This document shows, piece after piece, positions 40,622 to 55,624 of a stretch of 64,000 bases of DNA. The notes beneath the pieces were generated by a model. It was not told the origin of the DNA and did no database searches. It saw nothing but the letters and a program-made list of their open reading frames with translations. The DNA is taken from assembly GCA_017620525.1 (NCBI GenBank), contig JAGAUY010000011.1, positions 1,902 to 65,901 on the forward strand. The letters run 5' to 3'. Source of the stretch: Oscillospiraceae bacterium (lineage in GTDB: Bacteria; Bacillota; Clostridia; Oscillospirales; Oscillospiraceae). A program made the position numbers and the translations under genes. Within the stretch, counting starts at the first letter, position 1; each line of letters opens with the position of its first letter.

Positions 40622-40663
40622 AAAAAGAGGAATCGCTACAAATCGTAAGCGATTCCTCTTTTT
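40622..40663. terminator. Bidirectional terminator between the tra operon and the cob operon
   Basis: aaaaagaggaatcgct...agcgattcctcttttt. Confidence 0.85.
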
Positions 40664-41202
40664 CATGGAATATACCTATAGTTCCGATTCGCAATGACAT
40701 AGCCACTGCCGTTCTTTGGCTGCCATTCATAGCGGTTCTTATTTTCGTCTGGGAACAGATGCTCCATTATAGCGGCAATGCAGCCGCCGTGGGTGATGAT
40801 GCAGGCGTCCTCCCGGATTTCGGAGAATGCAGCCAGCACACGCTGGCGCATCTGCACACCGCTTTCGCCATTGGGCGGTACATTGGCGTCGTTGTCACCA
40901 GTGAGCCATGCCTGATAAGCTGGGGTGTCTTTCAGTTCCTCGTAGCTGTGCATCTCAAAAATGCCGAAATCCACTTCCTGGAATCGAGGATCGATGTCAA
41001 AAGGCACATCGCCAAACAGAACACGCAAGGTTTCATTCGTCCGCTCCATACCGCTGGTGAGGAATCGGACATTTTTGATGTCATAATGGAACTGGTGCAG
41101 TTCTTCTCTGCCTGCATCGGACAGGGGCAAGTCGCTACTGCCGCAGTAGAGATGGCGCTCGTTGGCTTCCGTCTTACCGTGGCGAATTAAGTAGATGGTC
41201 AT
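40663..41202 (-). CDS. cobC: Histidine phosphatase, CobC-like
   Basis: LIRHGKT, ITHGG; cob operon context. Confidence 0.75.
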   Translation of the reverse strand: MTIYLIRHGKTEANERHLYCGSSDLPLSDAGREELHQFHYDIKNVRFLTSGMERTNETLRVLFGDVPFDIDPRFQEVDFGIFEMHSYEELKDTPAYQAWLTGDNDANVPPNGESGVQMRQRVLAAFSEIREDACIITHGGCIAAIMEHLFPDENKNRYEWQPKNGSGYVIANRNYRYIP

Positions 41203-41561
41203 TTCAATCTCTGCTCCAATCCGCAGAAAATTCGGCTGACCTGTGTGGCTTCCTTGCTCAGATATTGGGCCAGCCGCCCGGTGTTCTGCCGCCATGCCCG
41301 GTTTTCAGCACCCATGGGAACCACACCGCAGAAAATATCCTGTAAAATCAGAATGCTATTCTGCCATTCCTCACGGTGGGTCTGAAAATAGCCGATGGGG
41401 TTGGGATGGCCATAGGTAAATTCTTCGATTTTATAGATGCAACGCTTGGAAAAGTCAATCTCCCCACCGTTGCAGATGAACACATCCTCATCAGAGATAT
41501 TAAAAGCGGATTTTGCGTAGTCCAGTTTTCCCTGGTACGCTCCGCCGATAATCAGAATCAT
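41199..41561 (-). CDS. Short CobU-like P-loop protein
   Basis: MILIIGGAYQGK, DIFCGVVPM..RAWR..GRL, VSRIFCG. Confidence 0.75.
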   Translation of the reverse strand: MILIIGGAYQGKLDYAKSAFNISDEDVFICNGGEIDFSKRCIYKIEEFTYGHPNPIGYFQTHREEWQNSILILQDIFCGVVPMGAENRAWRQNTGRLAQYLSKEATQVSRIFCGLEQRLK

Positions 41562-41571
41562 ATTGGCCTCC

Positions 41572-42309
41572 TTAAATGAGCACATACACCGCCACGGCAC
41601 ACAGTTCGCCAATGGTCAGTGCGTAGCCAGAAATGTCGCCGTTCATGCCGTCCAGGGATTTGTAGGCACGCCGAAGTGCAAGTCCATAGCCAGCCAGGCA
41701 GCCAACGAGAACAAATCCATACTTTCTGCAAAGCAGGAAACCTGCGGCAAGGAAGATGCAGAGCATGACCGTCAGTGCTACTATGTGGGACTTTGGTTTC
41801 TTTTGGTCGGCATATTGGCTGGTGGACATGGGGTTCAGCCCGGTCACCGCCAAAGCGGAACAGCACCGACTTACTGCCGGAATAAAAAACAGGATCAGGT
41901 AGTTGGCATCATTGGGTGCAGATGCGAATACCGCAAACTGCGCCAGCATCAGCAGTACGATACCGATAACCGCAAAGCTGCCAACATGGGAATCCTTCAA
42001 AATCTCCCGGCGGCGCTCCAGGTCACGCCAGGACTTGACTGCATCGGTCACATCCATGTAGCCATCCAGATGGATGAACCCAGTGACGATGTAGGGATAG
42101 GCACTTAGAACCAGCCCTGTGACCAGCGCGGGCAAATCCAGCAGTCTGCACAGCCAAGCCAGCACCGCCCAGATCGCGCCGATCTCCAAACCCACAACAG
42201 GCAGGAACAGGAGCATTTTATCTTTGGCTTTCTCGTCCCAAACCTGCGGTGCCGGGATGGAACAGAACATACTCTGGCACATGATAAAAGCGTGGAGAAA
42301 TTTTTTCAT
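41572..42309 (-). CDS. cobS: Adenosylcobinamide-GDP ribazoletransferase
   Basis: TGFIHLDGYMD, ILKDSHVGSF, GMNGDISG. Confidence 0.93.
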   Translation of the reverse strand: MKKFLHAFIMCQSMFCSIPAPQVWDEKAKDKMLLFLPVVGLEIGAIWAVLAWLCRLLDLPALVTGLVLSAYPYIVTGFIHLDGYMDVTDAVKSWRDLERRREILKDSHVGSFAVIGIVLLMLAQFAVFASAPNDANYLILFFIPAVSRCCSALAVTGLNPMSTSQYADQKKPKSHIVALTVMLCIFLAAGFLLCRKYGFVLVGCLAGYGLALRRAYKSLDGMNGDISGYALTIGELCAVAVYVLI

Positions 42310-42851
42310 ATACATAAATCTCCCTTGTGGATAGTCAGTTGCCCTGCGGATACCTCGATAACCGCATCGCACACTGCGGCCAGTCTGCGGTCAATATCCG
42401 CAAGACACTTGCGGTACATTTCGGTGCTTTCGGAATACCGTTCCGCATCCGAATAAATGTAATCGCTGACGATCACCGCATGGCGGACGGTCTTTGCAAA
42501 CCTGATCAGTTCATCGGCACAGCGGTGAGCTGCTTCCATATCCATCTCATAGTTTTTCTCCACCGGGAACAGAGCATTTTGCAGCAGTGCCGTTGCACTG
42601 TCCACCAGGAAAGTGCCATCCTTATCGGCCACCTCCAGACAGGACATAACATTCTTACTGCACTCCACAGTCTCAAAGCCCATGCCGTCCCGGTCGGCAA
42701 TATGGCGGCGGATGCGGTCATCATCTTCCTCGCCGGTGGAGATCATAGTGGCTACATAGTAATGCTTTCCGCCCTTGGCGAGTGCCACGGTCAGGTCTTG
42801 TGCCAGGGTGGATTTTCCATTCTTGGCACCGCCGGAGATGAAATAAGTCAT
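42306..42851 (-). CDS. cobU: Adenosylcobinamide kinase/guanylyltransferase
   Basis: SGGAKNGKS, YVATM, RIRRH, LVDS. Confidence 0.88.
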   Translation of the reverse strand: MTYFISGGAKNGKSTLAQDLTVALAKGGKHYYVATMISTGEEDDDRIRRHIADRDGMGFETVECSKNVMSCLEVADKDGTFLVDSATALLQNALFPVEKNYEMDMEAAHRCADELIRFAKTVRHAVIVSDYIYSDAERYSESTEMYRKCLADIDRRLAAVCDAVIEVSAGQLTIHKGDLCI

Positions 42852-43936
42852 TTGGCTCCCTCCACAGTGAATTTGTCGCCCTCACGAATTTCATCCAGAT
42901 AGCCATCGTCGATGCCTGCCTGGTCAAAGGTCGCCATATCATTGATGATGGTACAGGCGGCATCCAAAATCTCGAATGCCAGCGGACATCCGCTTCCTTC
43001 GCCCAACCGCATTCCCAGCAGGAAAAGCGGGCTTAATTCCATGGCATCCATCGCCAGCTTGTAGCCAATTTCATAAGAAGCATGGCTGGGGATAAGATAG
43101 CCCTTCACATTGGGACACAGTTTGTAAGCGCATAGGGCGGCAACGGCGGAAATAAAACCGTCGATCACCACCGGACAGCGGGTAACTGCTGCACCGATGA
43201 ATGCGCCGCACATGGCGGCAATATCGAAGCCGCCCACCTTGGAGAGCACATCGATCACATCGTTTTTATCGGGCTGATTTACAGCGATAGCGGTTTTGAT
43301 AACTTCCTTTTTCTTTCGGAAGCTGTCGTCGGTGATACCGCCTCCCCGGCCTGTCACATCTTCCACGGATGCGTCCAGCAGAACGGACAGCACAGCGGAA
43401 GACGTGGTGGTGTTGCCGATACCCATTTCCCCGACGCCCAGCGCATCAGCATGGGTGGACTTCGCCAGCTCAATGCCTGTCAAGATAGCTTGGATTGCCT
43501 GCTCTCTCGTCATGGCAGGGCCGCTCACGATGTTCTGAGTTCCATAGGCGATCTTGCGGTTCAGCACCGCAGGCTCCTTGATATCCGCATTGACGCCCAC
43601 ATCACAAACGGTGATACCACATCCGAAGTGCTTGCACAGGGTAGAAGCGCCGGTCTTGTGCCGGGTCAGGTTGATGGTCTGCATCTGAGTCACGGATTGG
43701 GGCGCACTGGACACGCCCTCTGCCACCACGCCATTGTCGGCAGCGAATACCAGCAGATGCTTTTTCTCGATTTTGTTATGTACCAGCCCGGTGATGCCTG
43801 CCAGCTGGACGGACAAGTCCTCCAGCCGTCCCAGACTTCCGGGAGGTTTCGCAAGCTGGTCCTGCCGCTCACGGGCTTCATTCATAGCGAACTCGTCCAA
43901 AGGACGGATCGCATTGAGATATGCTTCTAAGTACAT
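42848..43936 (-). CDS. cobT: Nicotinate-nucleotide-dimethylbenzimidazole phosphoribosyltransferase
   Basis: KPPGSLGRLE, FAADNG, GEMGIGNTT, MRLGEGSG. Confidence 0.96.
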   Translation of the reverse strand: MYLEAYLNAIRPLDEFAMNEARERQDQLAKPPGSLGRLEDLSVQLAGITGLVHNKIEKKHLLVFAADNGVVAEGVSSAPQSVTQMQTINLTRHKTGASTLCKHFGCGITVCDVGVNADIKEPAVLNRKIAYGTQNIVSGPAMTREQAIQAILTGIELAKSTHADALGVGEMGIGNTTTSSAVLSVLLDASVEDVTGRGGGITDDSFRKKKEVIKTAIAVNQPDKNDVIDVLSKVGGFDIAAMCGAFIGAAVTRCPVVIDGFISAVAALCAYKLCPNVKGYLIPSHASYEIGYKLAMDAMELSPLFLLGMRLGEGSGCPLAFEILDAACTIINDMATFDQAGIDDGYLDEIREGDKFTVEGAK

Positions 43937-43940
43937 GGTT

Positions 43941-44207
43941 TCAGCCCTCTTTCTTCTTCGCCAGCTGCGCGATCTGGCTGTACTTTGAAAGCACATAATC
44001 ATAACCACCTGCGCTGTGAGGGATCAGGCAGTTGGAGCAATCCTTGATGCCATTTTCCGTATAAGCACAGTTGCCGCCGCACTTATCACCCAAAGCATAC
44101 AATGGGCAATAACAGAACAGGCAGTTGAAGTTGCCGTCATCCCTTACTTTGTGGCAAGGAAAATATTCGCAGCTACGGTTTTGAAAGAAGCTATGGGAGT
44201 TTTCCAT
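43941..44207 (-). CDS. Cysteine-rich small metal-binding protein
   Basis: CEYFPCH..FNCLFCYCPLY..CGG..KDCSNCLIPH. Confidence 0.85.
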   Translation of the reverse strand: MENSHSFFQNRSCEYFPCHKVRDDGNFNCLFCYCPLYALGDKCGGNCAYTENGIKDCSNCLIPHSAGGYDYVLSKYSQIAQLAKKKEG

Positions 44208-44216
44208 TGGGTTACC

Positions 44217-44966
44217 TCAAATCAGGTTATTTTCTACCATCCATTCGATAGAAGGTGCGTCCTTCATCAGCTCCATGGTAAAGGTTGCATTCGGGCAGAT
44301 TTCTTCTGCCCGAAGAAGAAATTCTTTCATGGGGATTGTGCCATCGTTCAGGGCATTATGCTGATCTCGCGTTCCATCGTTGTTATGGACGTGGAAATGG
44401 CTGATGTAAGGCGCACAGATTTCCAGCCACTCCATGACAGAGATATTGGAATAGGCATTTACATGGCCAATGTCCAGACACATCTTTAGCCTCGGATCAT
44501 CCACGCCCTTCACAATATCCAGAAGCCAGGCAGGATCGGTTTCCAGCACATTTTCCAGCACGATCTGAATACCGGGATCTTCCTCCAGAAACTCCTTCCA
44601 GAACTTGATCGATTCGGCAGTGTACCACACCGGGAAATAGATCCATGGGTTAAAGCCGCCGTGGATGATGACCTTGGTGCTGCCGTAGCGTTTCGCAAGG
44701 TCGATTGCCTGCCAGTAGCGGGAAGCGGCCAGTTCTCTGGCCTTGGGATCAATGGCACAGGGGAACAGCTCGTTGTAGGGTGCGTGGAGAACGCTGCGGG
44801 CAATGCCATCCAGCTTCTTTTTGACCACACCGTCCACACCGGCGAATTTCTCATCCATGTTCCAAGCGGTGCAGTATTCCGCAATCTCAATGCCGCAGCC
44901 GTATTCCTTTGTAACGCGCACCGCGTCGGTGGCAATGGTAGAAAGGTAGATTTTTTCTCTGTTCAA
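44217..44966 (-). CDS. AP-endonuclease-2/TIM-barrel metalloenzyme, candidate CbiR-type cobamide remodelling hydrolase
   Basis: LHAP, IHGG, LENV, CLDIGH, HFHVHNNDG..DQH and ME metal ligands; TTG start overlaps the ecfT stop, GAGGTG RBS. Confidence 0.7.
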   Translation of the reverse strand: MNREKIYLSTIATDAVRVTKEYGCGIEIAEYCTAWNMDEKFAGVDGVVKKKLDGIARSVLHAPYNELFPCAIDPKARELAASRYWQAIDLAKRYGSTKVIIHGGFNPWIYFPVWYTAESIKFWKEFLEEDPGIQIVLENVLETDPAWLLDIVKGVDDPRLKMCLDIGHVNAYSNISVMEWLEICAPYISHFHVHNNDGTRDQHNALNDGTIPMKEFLLRAEEICPNATFTMELMKDAPSIEWMVENNLI

Positions 44967-45850
44967 AGCTGACACCTCGTTTTCTTGAATCGAAACTCCG
45001 TCCACAGTTCCATTATCAGCGGCAGCAAACACAAAACTGCGAAACCCATATAAAACACAAAGGAAATGGGGGTAATAGGATTCATGACGATTTTGGGATC
45101 ATACCAAATGACAGTCTGGCCCAGTAAATATCCCATAAGCGCCACCGTCAGGCAGGCAAACAAGCTAATCACCAGGCTCCGGTCCCGGTTGTCAAAGCGG
45201 TAAATGGAAAAGGCGGTGCGGCCTTTCAGCGCATATCCCCTGCTCCGCATAGAATCGGAACTCGTAGTGAAAGATTCCAACAACCATGTCAGGAGCATGG
45301 AGAAAATGCAGACAGCGTTGACAATCCTCTGAAAAACATTGCCTTGGTTGACGCCCCGTCCTACTGCTCTCCGGGCTGTGGATATCTTCTTTGCCTGGGC
45401 TTTTAGTCTTGGCACAGTTCGCAGAATAATAGAGAGGAACAGCGACAGTTTTGGACTGACCCGGCCAAAGAGATATACCACCTTATCAGCGGTAAAAACG
45501 GAAAACACGCAGCTCAGCCACATGAAAACCGTTGCCACAATCATGCCCAAGGTCACACCGTACAGCAAAGATTCCACGGTCATGTTGTTGCCGATGAAAT
45601 TCTGCCGCATGACGGTGACGCCAAAGTGGTTGTAGCTGGAGTAATACATGGCAAAAATAACGATCAGCGGGATCAGGCAAAGGTTGAAGATTACCGCCCG
45701 CTTTCCGTTGCGCTTTACGGAATAGGCAAAGGCGCTGAGATAGGAGATCAGCAAGAAAACAGGCTGCTTAAAAAGGATCGCTGCGGCGATGGTGCTGACG
45801 AAATAGAACAGGTTGATGGCAGGATGGTAACTCTCAAACCCCATCGTCAT
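44963..45850 (-). CDS. ECF transporter T component
   Basis: HPAINL.YF, RTVPR, SMRSRGY..RTAFS. Confidence 0.88.
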   Translation of the reverse strand: MTMGFESYHPAINLFYFVSTIAAAILFKQPVFLLISYLSAFAYSVKRNGKRAVIFNLCLIPLIVIFAMYYSSYNHFGVTVMRQNFIGNNMTVESLLYGVTLGMIVATVFMWLSCVFSVFTADKVVYLFGRVSPKLSLFLSIILRTVPRLKAQAKKISTARRAVGRGVNQGNVFQRIVNAVCIFSMLLTWLLESFTTSSDSMRSRGYALKGRTAFSIYRFDNRDRSLVISLFACLTVALMGYLLGQTVIWYDPKIVMNPITPISFVFYMGFAVLCLLPLIMELWTEFRFKKTRCQL

Positions 45851-46541
45851 GCGCCTCCATCATGCCGTACTTCACCTTCAGCCGGTCCAGCTTCTCCAGA
45901 AGGGGCTTGCCCAGCAGGAGCAGCACCAGGAAGGTGCAGATGCCCTGGCTCACATTCACGCTGAAGCCAGAAATATACAGCGGCCACGCCGTCCCCCAGG
46001 AGATGGCAGGCAGAGTCAGAAATACACTGCTGGTATCCAGCACCGGGCCGACGATCAGCACTACACTGATGAATCCGAAAACAGCCATGACCAGGGGCTT
46101 CCGGGGAAGCCGTTTTTTCGCAAATGAGAAGCCCGCGATCAGGCCGGCGACACCGTAACCCAGCATCTGCCAGGGAGTGTAGGGACCCTGGCCGTAGAAA
46201 AAGTTACTGGCAAAGGCAGAGATGGCGCCAACCAGGAAACCGGTCTCCGCCCCAAAGGCGATACCGGAGATCATAATAACGGCGAAGATGGCCTTGAAAT
46301 TGGGAATGGGAATGGCGGCACGGGCCGCAACAGCCAGCGCGCACATCACCGCAATGGTCACCAACTCCCGCGCCTGGGGCTTTCGCCCCTCAAAGGCCAT
46401 AAAGAATGGGATCAGCAATTCGATCACAATGAGTGTTCCAGTGAAATAATAGGAACGGCCCGGCAAAATCGTGCCAAAATACAAAGTTGCGGGAATCAGT
46501 GCAAACAGAACAATGAGCGTAGCAATGTTAGATTTCTTCAT
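45834..46541 (-). CDS. ECF transporter S component (CbrT-like)
   Basis: ARELV..A, PNFK, SNFFYGQGPYTPWQM. Confidence 0.85.
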   Translation of the reverse strand: MKKSNIATLIVLFALIPATLYFGTILPGRSYYFTGTLIVIELLIPFFMAFEGRKPQARELVTIAVMCALAVAARAAIPIPNFKAIFAVIMISGIAFGAETGFLVGAISAFASNFFYGQGPYTPWQMLGYGVAGLIAGFSFAKKRLPRKPLVMAVFGFISVVLIVGPVLDTSSVFLTLPAISWGTAWPLYISGFSVNVSQGICTFLVLLLLGKPLLEKLDRLKVKYGMMEAHDDGV

Positions 46542-46545
46542 AACA

Positions 46546-48201
46546 TCAGCCCTCCTTGTTCTGCTTATAGAGGTCAATCATATTCTCCGCCGTGACCGCA
46601 TTCTGAAACACATGGCGGCTCATACGGTTGGCGGCAGTGGTATAGAAGCTGTTGGAGCCAAAGAAGCGGCGGGGCGTATCGGTAGTCAGGATCTGACCAT
46701 CGAAGAACATGGAAACCATGTCCGCGTACTTTGCGCAGAACTCCACGTCATGGGACACCATCACGATGGTGATGCCCTGGATCTTGAGCTGGGCAAGGAT
46801 GGTGGCAAAGGTTTCCTTGAAGAAGCTGTCGATGCCCTTGGTGGGCTCGTCCAGCAGTAAAAGTTTCGGTTCCGTCAGCAGGACTTTTGCCAGGGCGGCA
46901 CGCTGCTGTTCACCGCCGGACAGATCGTAAGGGTGGTTGTCCAGCAGAGCGGTCACCTGACAAAGCTCCGCAACCTCAGCAATCTTCTGTTCATTCCTAC
47001 ACATCTCGGTCAAATCCTCCCGGACGGTTTTCTTAACGAACAGGCTCTTGGGATCCTGTGGCAGCATGGACAGGCAATTCTTGAACAGTTCCGCAGACTT
47101 ATATTTCTCCACCCGTTTCCCGAAAACCTTTACCTTACCCCGGTAGGGCTTGCAGATACCACAGATGGCTTTCAGGGTGGTGGATTTTCCGGCACCGTTG
47201 CCGCCTACGATGGCATACAAACTGCCCGCAGGCACCTCAGCGCTGACGCCTCGAAGGATATCGGGGCTGTCCTTTTCGTACCGGAACCACAGCTCTTTCA
47301 TAGAAAGAGCGGGGTTTTCAATTTCGTCCGCCAACGGCTCTGCCGGGAAGGTGGATACCTTGGGCGCTTCCGGGAATGCCTTGCTCAGCCAGTTGCGGCC
47401 CTCCCGGACGGTCAGGGGGCAGTCGCCCTCGCCCTGGGCCCCGTAGAACACCCGGACCGGGGTGGGCATGGCGGCGAACATATCATTGCCCTGCTCATAC
47501 AGGAGCTTGCCGATATTCCGGGGCGTGTCGTCCGCAATGACCCGGCCGCTGTCCATGACGATGGCACGGTCCGCATAGGGGAAGATATCCTCCATACGAT
47601 GCTCTGTGATGATGACAGTAGTGCCCAACTCAATATTGATTTTCCGCACGGTATTCAGAAAATCCGATGCCGCGATTGGGTCAAGCTGACTGGTGGGTTC
47701 ATCCAGGATCAGCACCTCCGGCTGCATGGCCATGATGGACGCCAGATTCAGAAGCTGTTTCTGTCCACCGGACAGGTTCGCCACATCCCGATGGAACCAG
47801 TCCTGGATGCCGAAATAGCAGGCCATTTCCGCAACACGGGCGCGCATGGTTTTCTGATCAGTTCCCAGGCTCTCCAGGCCAAAGGCCAGCTCATGCCAGA
47901 CCTTATCCGTGACGATCTGATCATCCGGGTTCTGCATCACATATCCGATTTTAGCGGACTGATCCCGCTGGCTCACCTTGTCCATGGGAATGTCGTTGAA
48001 CAGGATCTCTCCGCTGTGCTTGCCATGGGGTGCCAGCACGGATTTCAGATGCCGCAGAAGCGTGGTCTTGCCGCTGCCGGATTTGCCGCAGAGGACAACG
48101 TATTCGCCCTTTTCGATTGACAGTGTCACATCTTCCAGAGAGTGCTTCCCCTTTGCGGTGGGATAGGAAAAGGTCAGATTTTTGATCTCGAAATGTGCCA
48201 T
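46546..48201 (-). CDS. ECF transporter fused double ATPase
   Basis: Two ABC domains (GKSGSGKT and GGNGAGKS, LSGG, DEPT). Confidence 0.92.
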   Translation of the reverse strand: MAHFEIKNLTFSYPTAKGKHSLEDVTLSIEKGEYVVLCGKSGSGKTTLLRHLKSVLAPHGKHSGEILFNDIPMDKVSQRDQSAKIGYVMQNPDDQIVTDKVWHELAFGLESLGTDQKTMRARVAEMACYFGIQDWFHRDVANLSGGQKQLLNLASIMAMQPEVLILDEPTSQLDPIAASDFLNTVRKINIELGTTVIITEHRMEDIFPYADRAIVMDSGRVIADDTPRNIGKLLYEQGNDMFAAMPTPVRVFYGAQGEGDCPLTVREGRNWLSKAFPEAPKVSTFPAEPLADEIENPALSMKELWFRYEKDSPDILRGVSAEVPAGSLYAIVGGNGAGKSTTLKAICGICKPYRGKVKVFGKRVEKYKSAELFKNCLSMLPQDPKSLFVKKTVREDLTEMCRNEQKIAEVAELCQVTALLDNHPYDLSGGEQQRAALAKVLLTEPKLLLLDEPTKGIDSFFKETFATILAQLKIQGITIVMVSHDVEFCAKYADMVSMFFDGQILTTDTPRRFFGSNSFYTTAANRMSRHVFQNAVTAENMIDLYKQNKEG

Positions 48202-49073
48202 TGAATGGCCTCCTTTATGTGTAAAGCGGTAGGGATCAGCAAAAATGCGCAGTAAGCGATAAATCCCAAAGTGTTCAGCCCGGTAATGGGCGCGATATAC
48301 AGATCAGGGGTGAAGGTTGCGGTCATACTTCCATTTGCGCCGCAGGCTATCACCACAAATAACAGAGTAACGATCATCCCCATCAAGGTCCAGTCCATGG
48401 CGGTCATGCGGTAGATCTGGAAGCTGGTGCGTTTGGCGGTGCCATAGCCACGGGCGCGCATGGAATCGCCGGTGATAACGCTGCCCTCCAGCGCCCAATC
48501 GGTTAAAGCAGAGAGGACGGTCATGCCGTCGTTCACCTTCTCCTTGGTGGTGCTTTCGTCCCCGGCACCCTTGCCAATAGACTTTCTGGCTCCGATGATC
48601 TGCTTTGCCTTGCGGATAAAGTTGGGGATCATGCGAAGCACCATCACCAGCAGCAGTGACAGCGCCGGGATGAGATTTCCGAACAGGCTGGTGAACTTAT
48701 CGCTGGTCAGGACGGCATTGTAGCAGCCGAACCACAGCAGCATCACTACGAATACGCCTGCAATGGCCGCACCATACATCAACGCTTCCAGGGTATAGGG
48801 TCTCCCGAACAGGTGAAACAGCACTGTAACACCATAGGCATTAAGCAGTGGGTTAATAACGGTGAGAATGACAAACATGGGAAGCATCCCAAGGATCATC
48901 TTCCAGCCCTTTTTACCATTTAGGAGCAGATAATAGGTTCCTCCGCCCATCACTCCGGCGATCAGGTAGGCAGGGTGCTGGATCACCACGCCGCAGCCGA
49001 TGGCCCCGATGAAGAACAAGAAGTTTACCAGCGGGTGCCGTTTGGAAAAAGCATCATATTTTGAAGTGTTCAT
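48174..49073 (-). CDS. ECF transporter T component (second copy)
   Basis: HPLVNF.FF, RMIP, SMRARGY..RTSF. Confidence 0.88.
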   Translation of the reverse strand: MNTSKYDAFSKRHPLVNFLFFIGAIGCGVVIQHPAYLIAGVMGGGTYYLLLNGKKGWKMILGMLPMFVILTVINPLLNAYGVTVLFHLFGRPYTLEALMYGAAIAGVFVVMLLWFGCYNAVLTSDKFTSLFGNLIPALSLLLVMVLRMIPNFIRKAKQIIGARKSIGKGAGDESTTKEKVNDGMTVLSALTDWALEGSVITGDSMRARGYGTAKRTSFQIYRMTAMDWTLMGMIVTLLFVVIACGANGSMTATFTPDLYIAPITGLNTLGFIAYCAFLLIPTALHIKEAIQWHISRSKI

Positions 49074-49648
49074 TCCATTTTCGCTCCAACATCCGTGCCC
49101 AGCCCCTCGCAGGTATAGCACCAGACGATCTCATCTCCATGTTGAACCTCATAGCTGGAACAGCCATAATTGGGGAATTCTCCATTGACTTTATACATCC
49201 AGCCAGACTGATTGCCGCAGTCAAACTCGTAAAGATGGTTGATTCCCTCGATATAGTAGCTGTCATAAATCGGGGTCCAGCTGTATTCCAGCTGGATATC
49301 ACAGGCAGTACATACCCGCTGCAGTACATCAAAAACAGTTTCGCCCTCGTTAAATTCAACGACAGTTTCTCTAAGTATCACACCATCTGCCGGAACATAG
49401 GCGATCTTCGCCGGGTCCAACTTCTCCTGATTGCTTAGAATCGTGTCGCAGACAATGGTGATCTTACACAGATTCTCCGGTTCCTCCGAAAGAAGGATCG
49501 CATCGTTCGGAATTGAACCGGTCTGGAATTCAGAGCCTAATTCATTTCCTCCCTGCTTCCGAAAATGCAGCGCAGCCAGCACACCGGAGCATACCATTGC
49601 CACGATCACAACAACCATGACGATATTCGCTAACTTCTTTTTCTTCAT
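49070..49648 (-). CDS. Membrane-anchored DUF4430 (transcobalamin C-terminal-like) protein
   Basis: GETVFDVL, YIEGINHLYEFDCG..SGWMYKVNG.FPNYG..GDEIVWCYT. Confidence 0.88.
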   Translation of the reverse strand: MKKKKLANIVMVVVIVAMVCSGVLAALHFRKQGGNELGSEFQTGSIPNDAILLSEEPENLCKITIVCDTILSNQEKLDPAKIAYVPADGVILRETVVEFNEGETVFDVLQRVCTACDIQLEYSWTPIYDSYYIEGINHLYEFDCGNQSGWMYKVNGEFPNYGCSSYEVQHGDEIVWCYTCEGLGTDVGAKME

Positions 49649-49662
49649 CAGCATGACCTCCC

Positions 49663-49692
49663 AAAAAGAAAAAGTCCCCAAATTGGGGACTT
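49663..49692 (-). terminator. Riboswitch expression-platform terminator
   Basis: aagtccccaa-t-ttggggactt followed by tttctttttg on the minus strand, just before the RBS. Confidence 0.8.
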
Positions 49693-49993: not shown

Positions 49994-51058
49994 TTATTGG
50001 ACATCTGTCATATCGTAAAGGGAATTTTCGCCCCGCTCCATGCGCTCCAGAGCGACCAGCGCATAAAACGCCTGCTCCGTTGCCATCAGATCAGACTCTC
50101 CATCCAGGATATGGCGGAACCCGCCGTCCTCCGTCAGGAAATCCAGCAGCCGGTCTTTCAGCGTGTTCCCGTTCTTCACGAACCGCGAATCATCGATGCT
50201 GATCCCCAACTCTGCCAGCGCGGTGATCACCTGAGAAATGGACTCACTGCTCTCAGAACCATAGGCGGAAAATCCACCCTCGTCGTTCTGAAGCTCAGAC
50301 AGCACTGTTAGTGCGCGGTCAATGGCCTCGGACACGTCCTGACGATCCTGATACTTCGCAAGGGCTTGCAGTGCCATGGCGGTAATGTCCACATCCGCTT
50401 CACTGCCTGCCAAAGTCCATCCACCGGCAGGACACTCCGCATCCAGAATGTATTCCAGATAAAGCTCCCGGGTCGCCTGGGTCGTGCCGGCCACATTTTC
50501 AGGGATCTCATAACTGCCGCTGTCCAGCGCCAGCAGCGCAAAGATGGGACCATTGATGCCCTGGAAGATGGTCTGCTCATAGTCTGCCAGCGGAACCAAC
50601 AGATTATAGCCTCCCACATCGGTGGGATCCTTGCCGATGGCCGTCAGCGCCAGGATCACACGGGAATACTCCGTGTATTTCCTTTCGTTCAGGAGGCCTT
50701 CACAATTGATAACATATTCTTCCGCCTGTTCGTAGTAGCTGTCGAACCATTCCTGGGGCACTTCTCCACCCCAACGGGCAAGGCCGAAGGCTACCCACTC
50801 GCCGCCGACAGAACCGTAAGTCGGTTCGGGAATCGATTCCTGCAGCATCGCAGCGCAGTCATCCAGAGAGAATTCTGCCCTTTCCTTTTCTCCGTCCTCA
50901 GAGCCGCTGCTGGGTTCCAAAGCTACATCCGTCTGGGTTGTCGTGCTGTCATCCAGAGAAGATTCCTTCTTTTCCCCGGCGCAAGCTGTCACAGTCAGCG
51001 TCATCACCAAGGCAATAACAACAGCAAGTATTTTTTTGAACATGATTTTATCTTTCAA
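49994..51058 (-). CDS. Lipoprotein with prenyltransferase/squalene-oxidase alpha-barrel repeats
   Basis: Lipobox VTAC, GGEW..FGLAR, QGINGPIFALLALD, DVDITAMALQAL, LQNDEGGF, MATEQA. Confidence 0.82.
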   Translation of the reverse strand: MKDKIMFKKILAVVIALVMTLTVTACAGEKKESSLDDSTTTQTDVALEPSSGSEDGEKERAEFSLDDCAAMLQESIPEPTYGSVGGEWVAFGLARWGGEVPQEWFDSYYEQAEEYVINCEGLLNERKYTEYSRVILALTAIGKDPTDVGGYNLLVPLADYEQTIFQGINGPIFALLALDSGSYEIPENVAGTTQATRELYLEYILDAECPAGGWTLAGSEADVDITAMALQALAKYQDRQDVSEAIDRALTVLSELQNDEGGFSAYGSESSESISQVITALAELGISIDDSRFVKNGNTLKDRLLDFLTEDGGFRHILDGESDLMATEQAFYALVALERMERGENSLYDMTDVQ

Positions 51059-51079: not shown

Positions 51080-54000
51080 TCAGCTTTCCGCAGGAAAGGT
51101 ATCAATCGTTCCATAGTAATAGGAAACGATCAGGTTGGCGTCTTGGGTGTCAATCGTACCGTTGCCATCCACATCTGCAAGTTTCAGCTGCTGCTCGGTC
51201 AGTTCCTCGCTGCCATAGTAGTAAGAAACCACCAGATTTGCGTCCTGTGTATCGATGGTGCCATCCATGTTGACATCACCAATCAGCAGATCTGCCTCTT
51301 CCTCACCAATGGTCAGTTCCAGCGTTACAGAGGGTGTAGTCGTTGCGACGCCTGCTGTCATGGCAGTTCCATCCTCTGCGTTGTGGTACATGACATATTC
51401 AAAAGAAATTGTAACAGCGCAATTTCCTTCTGTCAATGCATCCGCAGAATAAGTCACATATTTGGTGATATCTCTGGTCATGCCATTAGCGTAAGTGGCC
51501 GTCACCACCATGCCAGTGGGGTCGAAGGTCTCCCCTTCTGCGTAGGTCATCTTGTCCGGCAGAGTGGTCACTTCAATGGTTACATTGCTGCCAAAGGCCA
51601 TCAGGTAAGCAGAGTCATTCTTGAAATAAATGGTGCCGTACTCGTCCACAATGGGGCTGCAAATAGCATACTGCGCCTGGTCGCCGGTGGGCGTGAACAG
51701 CGCGTAAGCGGTGGTGTAACTGCCCTCGGTGGTCACATAATCGGCACTGGTCTGGCCTGCCTTATCCCGCAGAACCCGAAACTTGCCAGGGGTCATGTTG
51801 TCAAAGAAATAGACATAGACATAACCACTTTCAGCTTCATAAGCCGTGGTCAGCAAACCGCTGGTCTGGGGATAGCCCTGGGTCTGAACGCTGTAGGCAA
51901 TGGCCTTTTTACTTAGATCGATGACTGTGATATTATGCCCGGAGTATGCGGCAAACTGGCCGGAACCAGACACGCCCACATAGGCCCTGCCATTGTAAAC
52001 CACGGGAGAACAGGTACTCATGGGCGTATTGCTGCTGCCATTGACAAGTACAACACTCCACATATTTGTCAGCTTCCGGTCAGCGGTGACCTGAACGCAG
52101 TAGAAGCCGCCGCCCTTGGAGGTGAAATAGTAAGCGTCGGTGACGCTGTCATAGACAACCGTGCTGCGAATATCGCCGTTGAGACCATCCCAGCTGTCCA
52201 GCAGCGCGCCAGACTTAGGATCCAGTAGCAGAAGCCGGGAGGTCTGGCTGGTGCAGGTATTGGTTCCGTCATCGGTGCCTACCAGCACAAAGTCATCGCA
52301 GGCATAAGCACCGGCCCAGTAGTAGCCGCCCTTGGCGGTATAATACCAGCAGGCGCATTTGCTTTCCTTCGTCTGAGTGGGGTCTTCATCCGTGATGGAC
52401 AGGCATACAAAGTTGGCGTCGCCGGTTTCGCTGTTCCAGAAGCCGGTATACAGATAACCATTTTTCACCGTCAGCGGGCAGTTGGGCTGGCCGCCCAGCG
52501 GATCGGTATAAATCCACAGAGATTCCAGCGTGACTGCATTGAACGCCTGTACGGTACCATTGGACAACGCCACAAAAACCATGCCTTCTGCGTAGGTGGG
52601 CGGGGTGATGGAGAAGCTGGACTTATGATCCATCGTGCCTGTTGCCACAACTTCACCCGTAACCGTATCAACGCGGTAGATCTTATCGCTTGCGTAGGTG
52701 ATCAGATATCCATCCACAATAATGGGGCTGCCGACCGCGTCAGAGTCGATGCCGCTGCCGATCTGGTTTGCCCAGTAAAGGGTACCATCTTCTGCGGCAG
52801 TCGGAATCCTGGCATCGGTCACGCCGTTGTTGGATTCATCACCACGGAAATTGGACCATTCCGATGTCAGGCTTGTATTGATGGTACTGTTGATCGCCGC
52901 CTGATCCAGCTTCCAGGTGATGGTCACAGTTCCGCCGCCTGCCTCGGTTTCTGTCACAGCATAACTCTCGGTTCCATTCGTCACCACCAGATTGTTATCT
53001 TCATCCCGTGTCACGCTGATGGTGCCGGACTTGCTCACATAGCCGTACTCCGTCAGCGTGAAGTCGTAGCTGTATCCTTCGCAAAGCTGGAATGCTCCAT
53101 TTTCATCAGGCCACAGCCGCTCGCCGGACATGGTTTCGTTCAGATTCAGAAGTGCATTCTCCGGTGTGATCTCAAAGATCGCCTCCACCGGGGGAGATTT
53201 CAGGATATGCAGTACATAATCAGAGCTGCCATTAGGCGCCTTATCATTTTCTACGGTGATGGTCACATTCTGGGTCTCTATGGTACCGTCCAGTTCGATT
53301 GCCGCCACCCCAGACCCGGTCACATCAGTTCCGTCCACCTTGACCCGGTAGCCAACTTCATCTTCGCCATAGCAGGTATTGCCTGCGTGGGGCGCTACGA
53401 AAAGATCCAGGGTCTCGGCGGCCATGGAAACCGTTACGAAATACTCCTTCACATCCGAGCTGAAGCCGGTGCTTCCGTTTTCCTGTACCAAAGATGCCGT
53501 AATGCCGTCGCATTTTGCAGTCATATCTTCCAGGGTCAGCATTCTGCCAAAGTCAACGATATAGTCCTGATAATAGGTTGCGCCGTCTGCTTCCTTCGTC
53601 AGGCGGATGGTCACCGCATTTTCAATGGGGTTTTCATCCATCAGGAAACGGTTCAGCTGAACGCCAGTCGTTGCGCCAGAAGTCAGTTCTTTGGTCTGTT
53701 CCTTACCGTGGTACAATGCAGACGCAAATACCTGATCGTAAATTGCCTGAATGGTCACACCGCTTTCTTCCGTAGAAACCCACACATATGCCAGATGCTC
53801 TGTGTCCACATATTCCACCTGATAGCTGTGGTTGGACACAGAGAATTCCGAATTAAGAGGAAGGGTATTCTTGTATTTACTGCTGCTCTTTGTACCAAAA
53901 GCCAGCTCTTTCAGCCAATCTTCCGTGGGAACATCCAATTCAATGGTGCTGTCGGCCACATCTTCCATGGTGAATTCATCCGCGATGTGGTAATAGGTAT

Positions 54001-55624
54001 CGGCAGTAGCCACATAGCTGTAGGTTTCACCGGGAACCAGGATATACTGATAACGGTTTCCGGAAGTCCCCTCCTTGAACCGCTCAAAGGGCATCACTTC
54101 CCCATTGCTGTTGACCACCTCCACCGTCACATCCGCAGATGTAGTAACGAAAGACAGTGCCTTACCCTCACCGGGACAAATGATCAGCGTATATGTATTG
54201 GAGTAGCCGTTTGCGGATACGGTCACAACAACGGAAGTCTCCTCTGCGTCTGCCAGTTCCACTGTCACTCCGCTTGCAGCGTCCTGACCGTTCACTGTGA
54301 CCTTGTAGCTATCATCCAGGGGCTTTGCAGTAACCGTGACCGCAGTAACCGTATCCACGACCTTGTACACATATTCCGTCACATCACCGCTGAAAGGCGT
54401 CATAGCGGTCTGATCCACACCGTTCTGATCCGCAACGGAAATTGCCATCAGAGAGGGAATTCTCGCAAATTCCACAGTGTAATCCTGAGAATAGGTGTAG
54501 TCATTCTCTGCCGTACAGCTGACCCGGTAGATGACCGTGTTCCCGGAAGCACCCTTCTTCAAAACATTTGCCGCACCGCTGGTCAGGGATTCAAAGGGGA
54601 TCGTCTGTTCCACACTGCTGCCGTTCTGGGCATTCCTGTACACAGCCGTTAGCACCGGTGTTCCGGGAACCAGGTCAGCATCATACTCTGCATAGGTATA
54701 GACAGTGCCCGTAAAGGTATCGCTCACAGGCACTACTACCTGCCGGTCACTCCATGTACCCAGGGCAAATTCATCGTCGCTGAACTTGTTGTCTGTGCTG
54801 TCCTCAGCACCATAACTGCCGGACAGTCGGAAAGCATCCAGCTCCAGCCACAGATTCTGGGGCAATGCCGCCTGCACAGTCATTGTGTCTGCCACCGTGG
54901 TACTGCCCTCTACGGCCAGTCCATTCTGACTGACACGGAAAGCATAGCTTCCTGCCGGCAGCTCCAGCACACCGTCACCATCGTCGGTCCACACCTTGCC
55001 ATAGGCATTTTCCGCTGTAATAGCTACATTGGAATATACGCTGCTTCCGTTGGCGAAGGTCACTTTGTACTGTACCCCGGTCTGGCTCTGCTCATAATCG
55101 CTGATGGCCTTATTCAGGTTTTCTGCAAGAACCGCTGCGGAATCACTGTCAATACCAACAAACTGGATGTATGCCGTGTCGTAAGCATCCTTTGCCGCAG
55201 TCCGAACATCGGTTTCCTTTAACTGATAATCTGCCATGGCTGTCATCAACTGCTGAAGACCAGTGCTGGGTTGGCTGTTGGCATCCTCGCTGAAACGGAA
55301 GAATCCCACCTCAGATGCCTGCTTGTCCAGCGCAAAGTCACCATCCTCATCGCTGCGGGTGAAGTTCCCCACTGCACCGTCGATGGCAGAAACCATGCCC
55401 TCTTCCAGTCCGGTAAATTCATGCCCGCTGGCAATCAACGCCTCCTGCACTGTCTGACCTTCCGTATAGGTAACATACTCCGGAGCGATCACCAGCGTTC
55501 CGTTTGCTTCCGCAACCAGCACAAAGGTGTTCTCTGTCACTGCCATGACGCCTGTCGGTAACATTCCAACCAGCATCATCACGGTAAGAAGCAAACAGAG
55601 CACTCTCTTTCCCATTTTCTTCAT
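51080..55624 (-). CDS. Secreted multidomain protein: cadherin-like sandwiches, PQQ-like beta-propeller, Ig-like domain, C-terminal dockerin
   Basis: Signal peptide; EWSNFRG..LYW propeller start; TLPDKMTYAEGETFDPTGM; twin GDVNMDGTIDTQDA/ADVDGNGTIDTQDA Ca-binding loops. Confidence 0.85.
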   Translation of the reverse strand: MKKMGKRVLCLLLTVMMLVGMLPTGVMAVTENTFVLVAEANGTLVIAPEYVTYTEGQTVQEALIASGHEFTGLEEGMVSAIDGAVGNFTRSDEDGDFALDKQASEVGFFRFSEDANSQPSTGLQQLMTAMADYQLKETDVRTAAKDAYDTAYIQFVGIDSDSAAVLAENLNKAISDYEQSQTGVQYKVTFANGSSVYSNVAITAENAYGKVWTDDGDGVLELPAGSYAFRVSQNGLAVEGSTTVADTMTVQAALPQNLWLELDAFRLSGSYGAEDSTDNKFSDDEFALGTWSDRQVVVPVSDTFTGTVYTYAEYDADLVPGTPVLTAVYRNAQNGSSVEQTIPFESLTSGAANVLKKGASGNTVIYRVSCTAENDYTYSQDYTVEFARIPSLMAISVADQNGVDQTAMTPFSGDVTEYVYKVVDTVTAVTVTAKPLDDSYKVTVNGQDAASGVTVELADAEETSVVVTVSANGYSNTYTLIICPGEGKALSFVTTSADVTVEVVNSNGEVMPFERFKEGTSGNRYQYILVPGETYSYVATADTYYHIADEFTMEDVADSTIELDVPTEDWLKELAFGTKSSSKYKNTLPLNSEFSVSNHSYQVEYVDTEHLAYVWVSTEESGVTIQAIYDQVFASALYHGKEQTKELTSGATTGVQLNRFLMDENPIENAVTIRLTKEADGATYYQDYIVDFGRMLTLEDMTAKCDGITASLVQENGSTGFSSDVKEYFVTVSMAAETLDLFVAPHAGNTCYGEDEVGYRVKVDGTDVTGSGVAAIELDGTIETQNVTITVENDKAPNGSSDYVLHILKSPPVEAIFEITPENALLNLNETMSGERLWPDENGAFQLCEGYSYDFTLTEYGYVSKSGTISVTRDEDNNLVVTNGTESYAVTETEAGGGTVTITWKLDQAAINSTINTSLTSEWSNFRGDESNNGVTDARIPTAAEDGTLYWANQIGSGIDSDAVGSPIIVDGYLITYASDKIYRVDTVTGEVVATGTMDHKSSFSITPPTYAEGMVFVALSNGTVQAFNAVTLESLWIYTDPLGGQPNCPLTVKNGYLYTGFWNSETGDANFVCLSITDEDPTQTKESKCACWYYTAKGGYYWAGAYACDDFVLVGTDDGTNTCTSQTSRLLLLDPKSGALLDSWDGLNGDIRSTVVYDSVTDAYYFTSKGGGFYCVQVTADRKLTNMWSVVLVNGSSNTPMSTCSPVVYNGRAYVGVSGSGQFAAYSGHNITVIDLSKKAIAYSVQTQGYPQTSGLLTTAYEAESGYVYVYFFDNMTPGKFRVLRDKAGQTSADYVTTEGSYTTAYALFTPTGDQAQYAICSPIVDEYGTIYFKNDSAYLMAFGSNVTIEVTTLPDKMTYAEGETFDPTGMVVTATYANGMTRDITKYVTYSADALTEGNCAVTISFEYVMYHNAEDGTAMTAGVATTTPSVTLELTIGEEEADLLIGDVNMDGTIDTQDANLVVSYYYGSEELTEQQLKLADVDGNGTIDTQDANLIVSYYYGTIDTFPAES

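Follow-up and report, generated by a model that had tools for sequence, protein, structure and literature searches.

A candidate CbiR-like cobamide phosphodiesterase encoded beside cob and ECF transporter genes in Oscillospiraceae

Background

The form of B12 that a cell can use shapes competition and cross-feeding among gut bacteria, and remodelling turns another organism's cobamide into the cell's own. To our knowledge, remodelling has been assigned to CbiZ, CbiR and one CobS. Together with an importer, CobU, CobS, CobT and CobC form the classical CbiB-independent set for cobinamide salvage, which needs no extra enzyme. CbiR cleaves AdoCbl to AdoCbi-P and alpha-ribazole, bypassing the rebuilding of the linker (PMC7733943). 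Its activity is sensitive to oxygen and to EDTA.

The DNA analysed here, a stretch of 64,000 nucleotides from an Oscillospiraceae bacterium (the window), carries such a salvage set downstream of ECF transporter genes. Between the two lies a gene for a protein of the AP-endonuclease-2 (AP_endonuc_2) superfamily, publicly annotated as a sugar phosphate isomerase/epimerase. What is this protein doing among cobamide genes? The original prediction made it a mislabelled remodelling hydrolase, similar to CbiR, that completes a minimal remodelling route.

The gene and its operon

The gene belongs to a tightly packed run of minus-strand genes reaching from about 49.7 kb to 40.66 kb. From the first gene of the operon to the last, the features are as follows.

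49070..49681, minus strand: DUF4430 protein, likely corrinoid binder, first operon gene (PF14478, E 2.4e-20)
48174..49121, minus strand: putative first EcfT-like component, paralogue of the product of 44963-45850 (no Pfam match; syntenic in related loci)
46546..48201, minus strand: fused EcfA-A' double ATPase (two ABC_tran domains; TIGR04520 and TIGR04521 above their cut-offs)
45834..46577, minus strand: ECF substrate-specific (S) component (PF07155, E 8.7e-16; PF12822, E 7e-9)
44963..45850, minus strand: divergent EcfT-like transmembrane component, second of two, 295 aa (nearest Atlas clusters EcfT)
44217..44966, minus strand: candidate cobamide phosphodiesterase gene (249-aa AP_endonuc_2 TIM barrel, PF01261)
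43941..44207, minus strand: small Cys-rich (zf-like) protein (PF04071, E 9.7e-31)
42848..43936, minus strand: cobT, lower-ligand phosphoribosyltransferase, likely ATG at 43936 (PF02277, E 1e-130; TIGR03160, 427.7 bits against 319)
42306..42851, minus strand: cobU, cobinamide kinase/Cbi-P guanylyltransferase (PF02283, E 9e-26)
41572..42315, minus strand: cobS, cobamide-5'-phosphate synthase, start approximate (PF02654, E 1e-41)
41199..41561, minus strand: CobU-like fragment of about 120 aa (PF02283, E 2.6e-8, profile positions 112-167)
40663..41202, minus strand: cobC-type histidine phosphatase, start approximate (PF00300, His_Phos_1, E 1e-32)

The open reading frame of interest has 249 codons and a TGA stop. 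It starts not with ATG but with TTG (44966-44964); this codon and the TGA that ends the preceding 295-aa gene (44965-44963) overlap as TTGA, and GAGG sits 8 nt upstream of the TTG. The same start position is found in the database copy (P0001) and in its 249-aa homologues. The nearest Atlas clusters of the upstream product are EcfT (score 0.96-0.98, structural TM 0.91-0.95), although it has no Pfam CbiQ match, and the coupling to ecfT in the original prediction is seen. So is the position directly upstream of the Cys-rich gene and cobT/U/S/C, which the domain matches bear out; the Cys-rich gene begins 9 nt past the stop codon.

Several features of the operon deserve description in their own right. 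It includes two paralogous EcfT-like genes, whose products have the motif MR(A/S)RGY in common; Pfam CbiQ and NCBIfam miss both, and both are also present in many related loci. The CobU-like fragment matches CobU over the C-terminal third alone, and its own N-terminus is P-loop-like but degenerate. As 60 of 80 related loci (defined below) keep it at this place, between cobS and cobC, it probably has a function and is no remnant; the cobC-type phosphatase gene is syntenic in 54.

Upstream of the ECF genes is a gene for a lipoprotein with an alpha/alpha-toroid (prenyltransferase/squalene-cyclase-like) domain (49994-51058, minus strand), and its pairing with the DUF4430 gene (49070-49681) recurs in related loci. 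We take the two products together to be reminiscent of transcobalamin, with each of its two domains encoded by a separate gene; neither found a transcobalamin match when compared with PDB sequences. DUF4430 has been reported from the C-terminal region of transcobalamin (TCN) proteins (PMC4350170). Between the two genes there is a hairpin with a T-run (49693-49671). Further upstream, a gene for a secreted protein of 1514 aa (51080-55624, minus strand), with a signal peptide and two C-terminal dockerin-like repeats (DVNMDGTIDTQDANL, twice), terminates 22 nt ahead of the lipoprotein gene. A search for cobalamin riboswitches gave none at gathering scores for the window and none at E<=1 across 49-58 kb, which is unusual for an operon of cobamide uptake and salvage. 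A promoter and terminator scan gave sites no commoner than expected by chance.

Structure and predicted metal ligands

The protein is a clear member of PF01261 (78.8 bits against a gathering score of 31.1, E 6.8e-22). Its AF2 model (pLDDT 98.3) is a TIM barrel in which strands and helices alternate, and the best PDB neighbours of the model are all barrels of the PF01261 type. The closest solved structures are MJ1311 (3wqo) and TTHB071 (3ayt/3ayv), with a TM score of 0.80 each, ahead of epimerases and of endonuclease IV (EndoIV). Their PDB titles assign no function and neither is a proven epimerase. The fold search fails to separate phosphodiesterase from epimerase neighbours.

In the alignment used for the tree, nine positions (H61, H102, E138, D165, H168, H192, D201, H203 and E232) are conserved in 31 or 32 of the 32 rows from the family, and the same columns are kept in all EndoIV rows and in all rows of the sister clade described below. 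We take these columns to be the three-metal ligands of endonuclease IV. The AP-endonuclease-2 fold and the intact metal ligands of the original prediction are confirmed in this respect. CbiR keeps eight of the nine positions in register, its Asp being one position nearer the His. Residues invariant in all 20 CbiR rows align with H61, H102, E138, D165, H168, H192, H194, H203 and E232; H194, the second His of the HxH motif, is present in 30 of 32 family rows and 20 of 20 CbiR rows, while EndoIV has Asn. Ten paralogues of the isomerase/epimerase type keep E138 (with the exception of one row), D165, H192 and E232 but mostly lack H61 and H102.

Distribution and gene linkage

The family is large. 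A collection clustered at 90% identity contains 2103 matching proteins at E<=0.001, and those seen with an annotation are named sugar phosphate isomerase/epimerase; a library clustered at 50% identity gave 319 clusters at E<=1e-30. A search of GTDB species genomes with a 20-row family alignment found at least 534 matching loci. The carriers are mostly Oscillospiraceae (Faecousia and relatives), together with a few Synergistaceae, one Christensenellaceae MAG, one Oliverpabstia MAG and the isolate Pseudoflavonifractor sp. MSJ-30. Distribution is patchy: when 301 genomes of the order were sampled evenly, a clear orthologue was present in just two, the genome of the window and G109.

Linkage was counted by mapping the operon proteins of the window onto 80 loci from GTDB species genomes. 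In 75 of these, cob genes (cobT/U/S/C) or their ECF transporter adjoin the family gene, in several arrangements.

cobT/cobU/zf directly downstream on the same strand: 64 of 80 loci, 29 of these with ECF genes directly upstream
Within an ECF operon only, in some cases flanked by ecfAA' and the S gene: 10 of 80 loci
Divergent from cobT: 1 of 80 loci
Contig end beside the gene: 1 of 80 loci
Without a cob or ECF neighbour: 4 of 80 loci

Since downstream, divergent and ECF-only arrangements all occur, the linkage survives rearrangement. For example, in G109, which belongs to another genus and whose protein has 45% identity, the gene is divergent from cobT-cobU-cobS-x-cobC-cobA. There is also a natural fusion, a single 619-aa AP_endonuc_2-CobT protein (P0175, L151:4328-6187) on one metagenomic contig, followed by genes for CobU, CobS and a CobU-like protein. 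Persistence of the linkage across different arrangements, together with this fusion, gives a role in nucleotide-loop metabolism its strongest support.

Two further observations concern individual loci. In G109, whose genome encodes CbiZ, CbiB and CbiC, a gene of the Amidohydro_1 family (L015:10460-11308) overlaps the end of the AP_endonuc_2 gene. A second fusion, an 886-aa AP_endonuc_2-RecQ protein (P0129, L152:1853-4513), was treated as a one-off because it occurs on a single 4.6-kb contig and RecQ is absent from all 80 related loci; no other hint suggests a different role.

Content of the host assembly

The source genome (G000) is a metagenome-assembled genome of 2.09 Mb in 103 contigs and is 68% complete. 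Sequencing runs of two studies contain 0.88 or more of the words of this DNA, and one of the studies (P1) includes samples marked as its possible source; no RNA runs containing it were listed. The original prediction noted that the operon has no cbiZ, cbiB or ring-synthesis genes. This holds for the operon, but the genome-wide absence of these genes rests on the 68%-complete assembly, across which PF01955 (CbiZ), PF03186 (CbiB) and PF02570 (CbiC) have no match. Curated CbiR was not found in this 68%-complete assembly either, nor was a B12-binding domain protein above the cut-off. A bona fide nfo gene (endonuclease IV, 281.8 bits) is present on another contig. Another genome of this genus, 99% complete, has no CbiZ, CbiB or CbiC match either, but cobT and the AP_endonuc_2 gene are also missing from it, and the whole cassette is therefore accessory.

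Other carriers provide a wider view. CbiB is present in 17 of 30 other genomes carrying the family, so that the enzyme also occurs outside minimal routes, and this part of the original prediction needs correcting. CbiZ occurs in none of the 30, which is uninformative given its background in the order (3 of 301 genomes). In Oscillospirales, both CbiZ and curated CbiR are all but absent (3 and 0, respectively, of the 301 genomes sampled). In Synergistota, the family was found in 3 and CbiR in 45 of 201 genomes with no overlap, numbers too small to carry meaning.

Relation to CbiR

Is the protein simply a CbiR? Against the NCBIfam model for CbiR (NF041277) it scores 41.8 bits (E 8.6e-11), well below the cut-off of 105, and it lies outside the curated CbiR family. 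CbiR is the top NCBIfam match for 93 of 94 diverse family members, and none of the 94 listed reaches the cut-off (best E 5.4e-24). The CbiR sequences used for comparison were 20 from Synergistota above the NCBIfam cut-off, a set that does not include A. muciniphila CbiR itself; Synergistota CbiR sequences score 110-276 bits against the model.

The sub-threshold score was considered as a sign of kinship and rejected, since other AP_endonuc_2 proteins of the order reach 65-83 bits. Examples are G229:C28:1080-1805 and G091:C45:45624-46358 (similar cases: L156-L164), which match the CbiR model over nearly its full length at 65-83 bits. The nine such loci examined have no cob genes nearby.

A maximum-likelihood tree was constructed from 32 family rows, 20 CbiR rows, five endonuclease IV rows and 16 rows of other paralogues. 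The family forms one clade (support 97/91) and CbiR a separate one (100/100); the sister of the family is a third clade (95/84) and not CbiR. CbiR is likewise a single clade in the superfamily tree of Mok et al. (Fig. 6A). The backbone is weak: CbiR pairs with EndoIV at only 80/83, and the family falls, with weak support, on the side of the other AP_endonuc_2 paralogues. In an AU test, a topology holding family and CbiR together was not rejected (p 0.20). Profile comparison with hhalign gave, for the family, E values of 1.8e-47 with the sister clade, 1e-19 with mixed paralogues, 4.4e-14 with EndoIV and 3e-13 with CbiR. For CbiR, the values were 4e-10 with the sister clade, 4e-8 with mixed paralogues and 2e-6 with EndoIV; as seen from CbiR, the closest partner is this family. 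Because the clade is separate from curated CbiR, any correspondence between them is one of functional analogy and not of orthology.

The neighbouring clade in the tree

Members of the sister clade were identified in four genomes of the same order (L016:9478-10263, L019:9644-10414, L017:3277-4059 and L018:9615-10391, from G085, G045, G171 and G285, respectively). They have 23-26% identity to the family and all nine EndoIV ligand positions. In each of the four loci examined, a gene for an adenylate/guanylate cyclase (linked to CHASE2 or PAS) abuts the sister-clade gene, and in two of them a gene for a cNMP-binding protein also adjoins it. Gene order differs between the two bacterial families concerned.

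This context suggests that the sister clade is a candidate new class of cyclic-nucleotide phosphodiesterase and, through the position beside nucleotide cyclases, suggests phosphodiesterase chemistry for the family of the window as well. If the sister clade does have this activity, the wider branch acts on nucleotide 3'-phosphodiesters. The cobamide loop contains a bond of this type, a phosphodiester to the 3'-oxygen of the alpha-riboside.

Proposed function and alternatives

Taken together, these results make it fairly probable that the gene encodes a CbiR-like cobamide phosphodiesterase yielding cobinamide-phosphate (Cbi-P) for CobU, CobS, CobT and CobC. The analysis shows the fold, the conserved ligand positions, the organisation of the operon, the linkage across the family and the CobT fusion; the substrate, the bond that is cut and the part in remodelling are inferred. 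According to this proposal, the DUF4430 binder and the ECF transporter would import a corrinoid, and the enzyme would hydrolyse the bond that links the phosphate to the 3'-oxygen of the lower-ligand riboside, matching endonuclease IV and CbiR in bond polarity. The products would be an alpha-riboside and Cbi-P. CobU could then guanylylate Cbi-P, CobT would activate the preferred base, CobS would join the two and, finally, CobC would remove the 5'-phosphate. In the source genome, as far as its 68%-complete assembly covers it, there is no CbiZ, CbiB or curated CbiR to fill the role, and the separate genuine nfo gene means that the protein is not the housekeeping nuclease.

The original prediction argued from the presence of the genes required by a CbiR route, but this argument does not discriminate. 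Plain cobinamide salvage is served by the same CobU/S/T/C set, so that the gene set alone is no proof of remodelling. As to the enzyme, a remodelling hydrolase mislabelled as an isomerase is still the best-supported reading, through the strong and varied linkage to cobT/U/S/C and a corrinoid-type ECF transporter, the CobT fusion and a metal site of the endonuclease IV/CbiR kind, although it has to be separated from membership of CbiR. Several observations count against it: the sub-threshold CbiR score, the placement in the tree on the side of the paralogues, the four of 80 loci without linkage, the RecQ fusion, the lack of a riboswitch and, in the 68%-complete assembly, that of a B12-binding domain protein above the cut-off.

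The same evidence from context and metal site would also fit a phosphoesterase that serves nucleotide-loop salvage in another way, which we consider improbable, though by no means negligible. Such an enzyme might cut the other side of the diester (giving cobinamide and alpha-riboside 3'-phosphate), dephosphorylate cobamide-5'-P or alpha-ribazole-P, or trim an imported corrinoid or alpha-riboside conjugate ahead of CobU and CobS. Sites of the endonuclease IV type also act as 3'-phosphatases and 3'-diesterases, and ten loci tie the gene to the ECF importer alone. Moreover, the CobU of the operon is of the bifunctional kinase/guanylyltransferase family (NF004469, below cut-off), and its kinase could re-phosphorylate free cobinamide. 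We know of no such extra phosphoesterase step that the pathway needs, however, and a CobC phosphatase is already present in the 54 loci mentioned above. In addition, the only characterised member of the superfamily from cob loci cuts the ribosyl-phosphate bond (PMC7733943).

The public annotation itself, a sugar or sugar-phosphate isomerase/epimerase that merely travels with cob genes, appears very unlikely. Many structural neighbours are indeed ketose 3-epimerases (TM about 0.7) and the tree sets the clade nearer to such paralogues, with weak support, and there is a weak match to fructoselysine 3-epimerase. This match is the best to any ketose or sugar-phosphate 3-epimerase/isomerase model, but it has 27.5 bits where 305 are required. 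H61 and H102, the two extra N-terminal His that a single-metal epimerase site would not have, are kept by the family and mostly missing from the isomerase-type paralogues; the operon has no sugar-metabolism genes; the family gene is linked to cob or ECF genes in 75 of 80 loci and is fused to cobT in one case; and the closest structures, MJ1311 and TTHB071, are not themselves established epimerases. Least likely of all, with hardly any weight left to it, is a DNA-repair nuclease paralogous to endonuclease IV. The nine ligand positions, weak matches to deoxyribonuclease IV models in 60 of 94 members and the single contig with the RecQ fusion speak for it. However, the protein does not belong to endonuclease IV as defined by TIGR00587 or PRK01060, its sole deoxyribonuclease IV match (NF002196) has an E value of 0.0095 and 15.3 bits against 333, the genome already has a true nfo, RecQ occurs in none of the 80 loci and the context is one of cobamide genes.

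Implications

If the clade does remodel cobamides, as the preferred phosphodiesterase reading would have it, remodelling would be widespread among Clostridia of the gut and rumen, with the clade present in at least 534 species genomes, and an entire branch of functional equivalents would escape the NCBIfam CbiR model. One carrier, Pseudoflavonifractor sp. MSJ-30, whose orthologue lies at L074:10001-10750, is in culture. A broader scenario, which we put forward tentatively and regard as doubtful, is that the clade was recruited to remodelling independently of CbiR, one arm of the branch acting on the cobamide nucleotide loop in hundreds of species of gut Clostridia and the other constituting a new class of cyclic-nucleotide phosphodiesterases.

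Comparison with known systems

Remodelling by way of CbiZ needs CbiB afterwards. CbiZ (adenosylcobinamide amidohydrolase, PF01955), named as the other remodelling enzyme that opens cobamides, has an unrelated fold and cuts a different bond (PMC7733943). Endonuclease IV (Nfo; TIGR00587) resembles the protein of the window in its nine aligned metal-ligand positions, and cleavage of a 3'-O-P bond is the presumed common chemistry; the window protein is shorter and its context is not DNA repair. Among solved structures, MJ1311 (PDB 3wqo, 'D-tagatose 3-epimerase-like protein') is the nearer in sequence (profile E 6.6e-25, 26% identity), aligning through the HAP, H-G, LEN, DIGH, HxHxxNNG..D.H and E motifs, and TTHB071 (PDB 3ayt/3ayv) is more distant (profile E 1.6e-6, 19% identity).

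A literature search found no description of CbiR-like enzymes in Clostridia. The CbiR set of Mok et al. (2020) is mostly from Chlorobi, Chloroflexi and Proteobacteria (PMC7733943). In their Table S1, Firmicutes are named only four times, two of these entries being weak homologues that are not beside cob genes (PMC7733943).

CbiR of Akkermansia muciniphila (Amuc_1679; NF041277) is the closest functional parallel that we propose. It belongs to the same superfamily (PF01261), is of similar size (249 profile positions) and has a locus of the same type, where it runs in one direction with cobT/U/S, as the family gene does in the window and in 64 of the 80 loci. The two differ in sequence, CbiR and the window protein having about 20% identity over 182 aligned columns with only the C-terminal three quarters aligning, and in the active-site motif, which is DxH in the family and DH in CbiR. 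They also differ in range, the family being one of gut Clostridia and often joined to an ECF importer.
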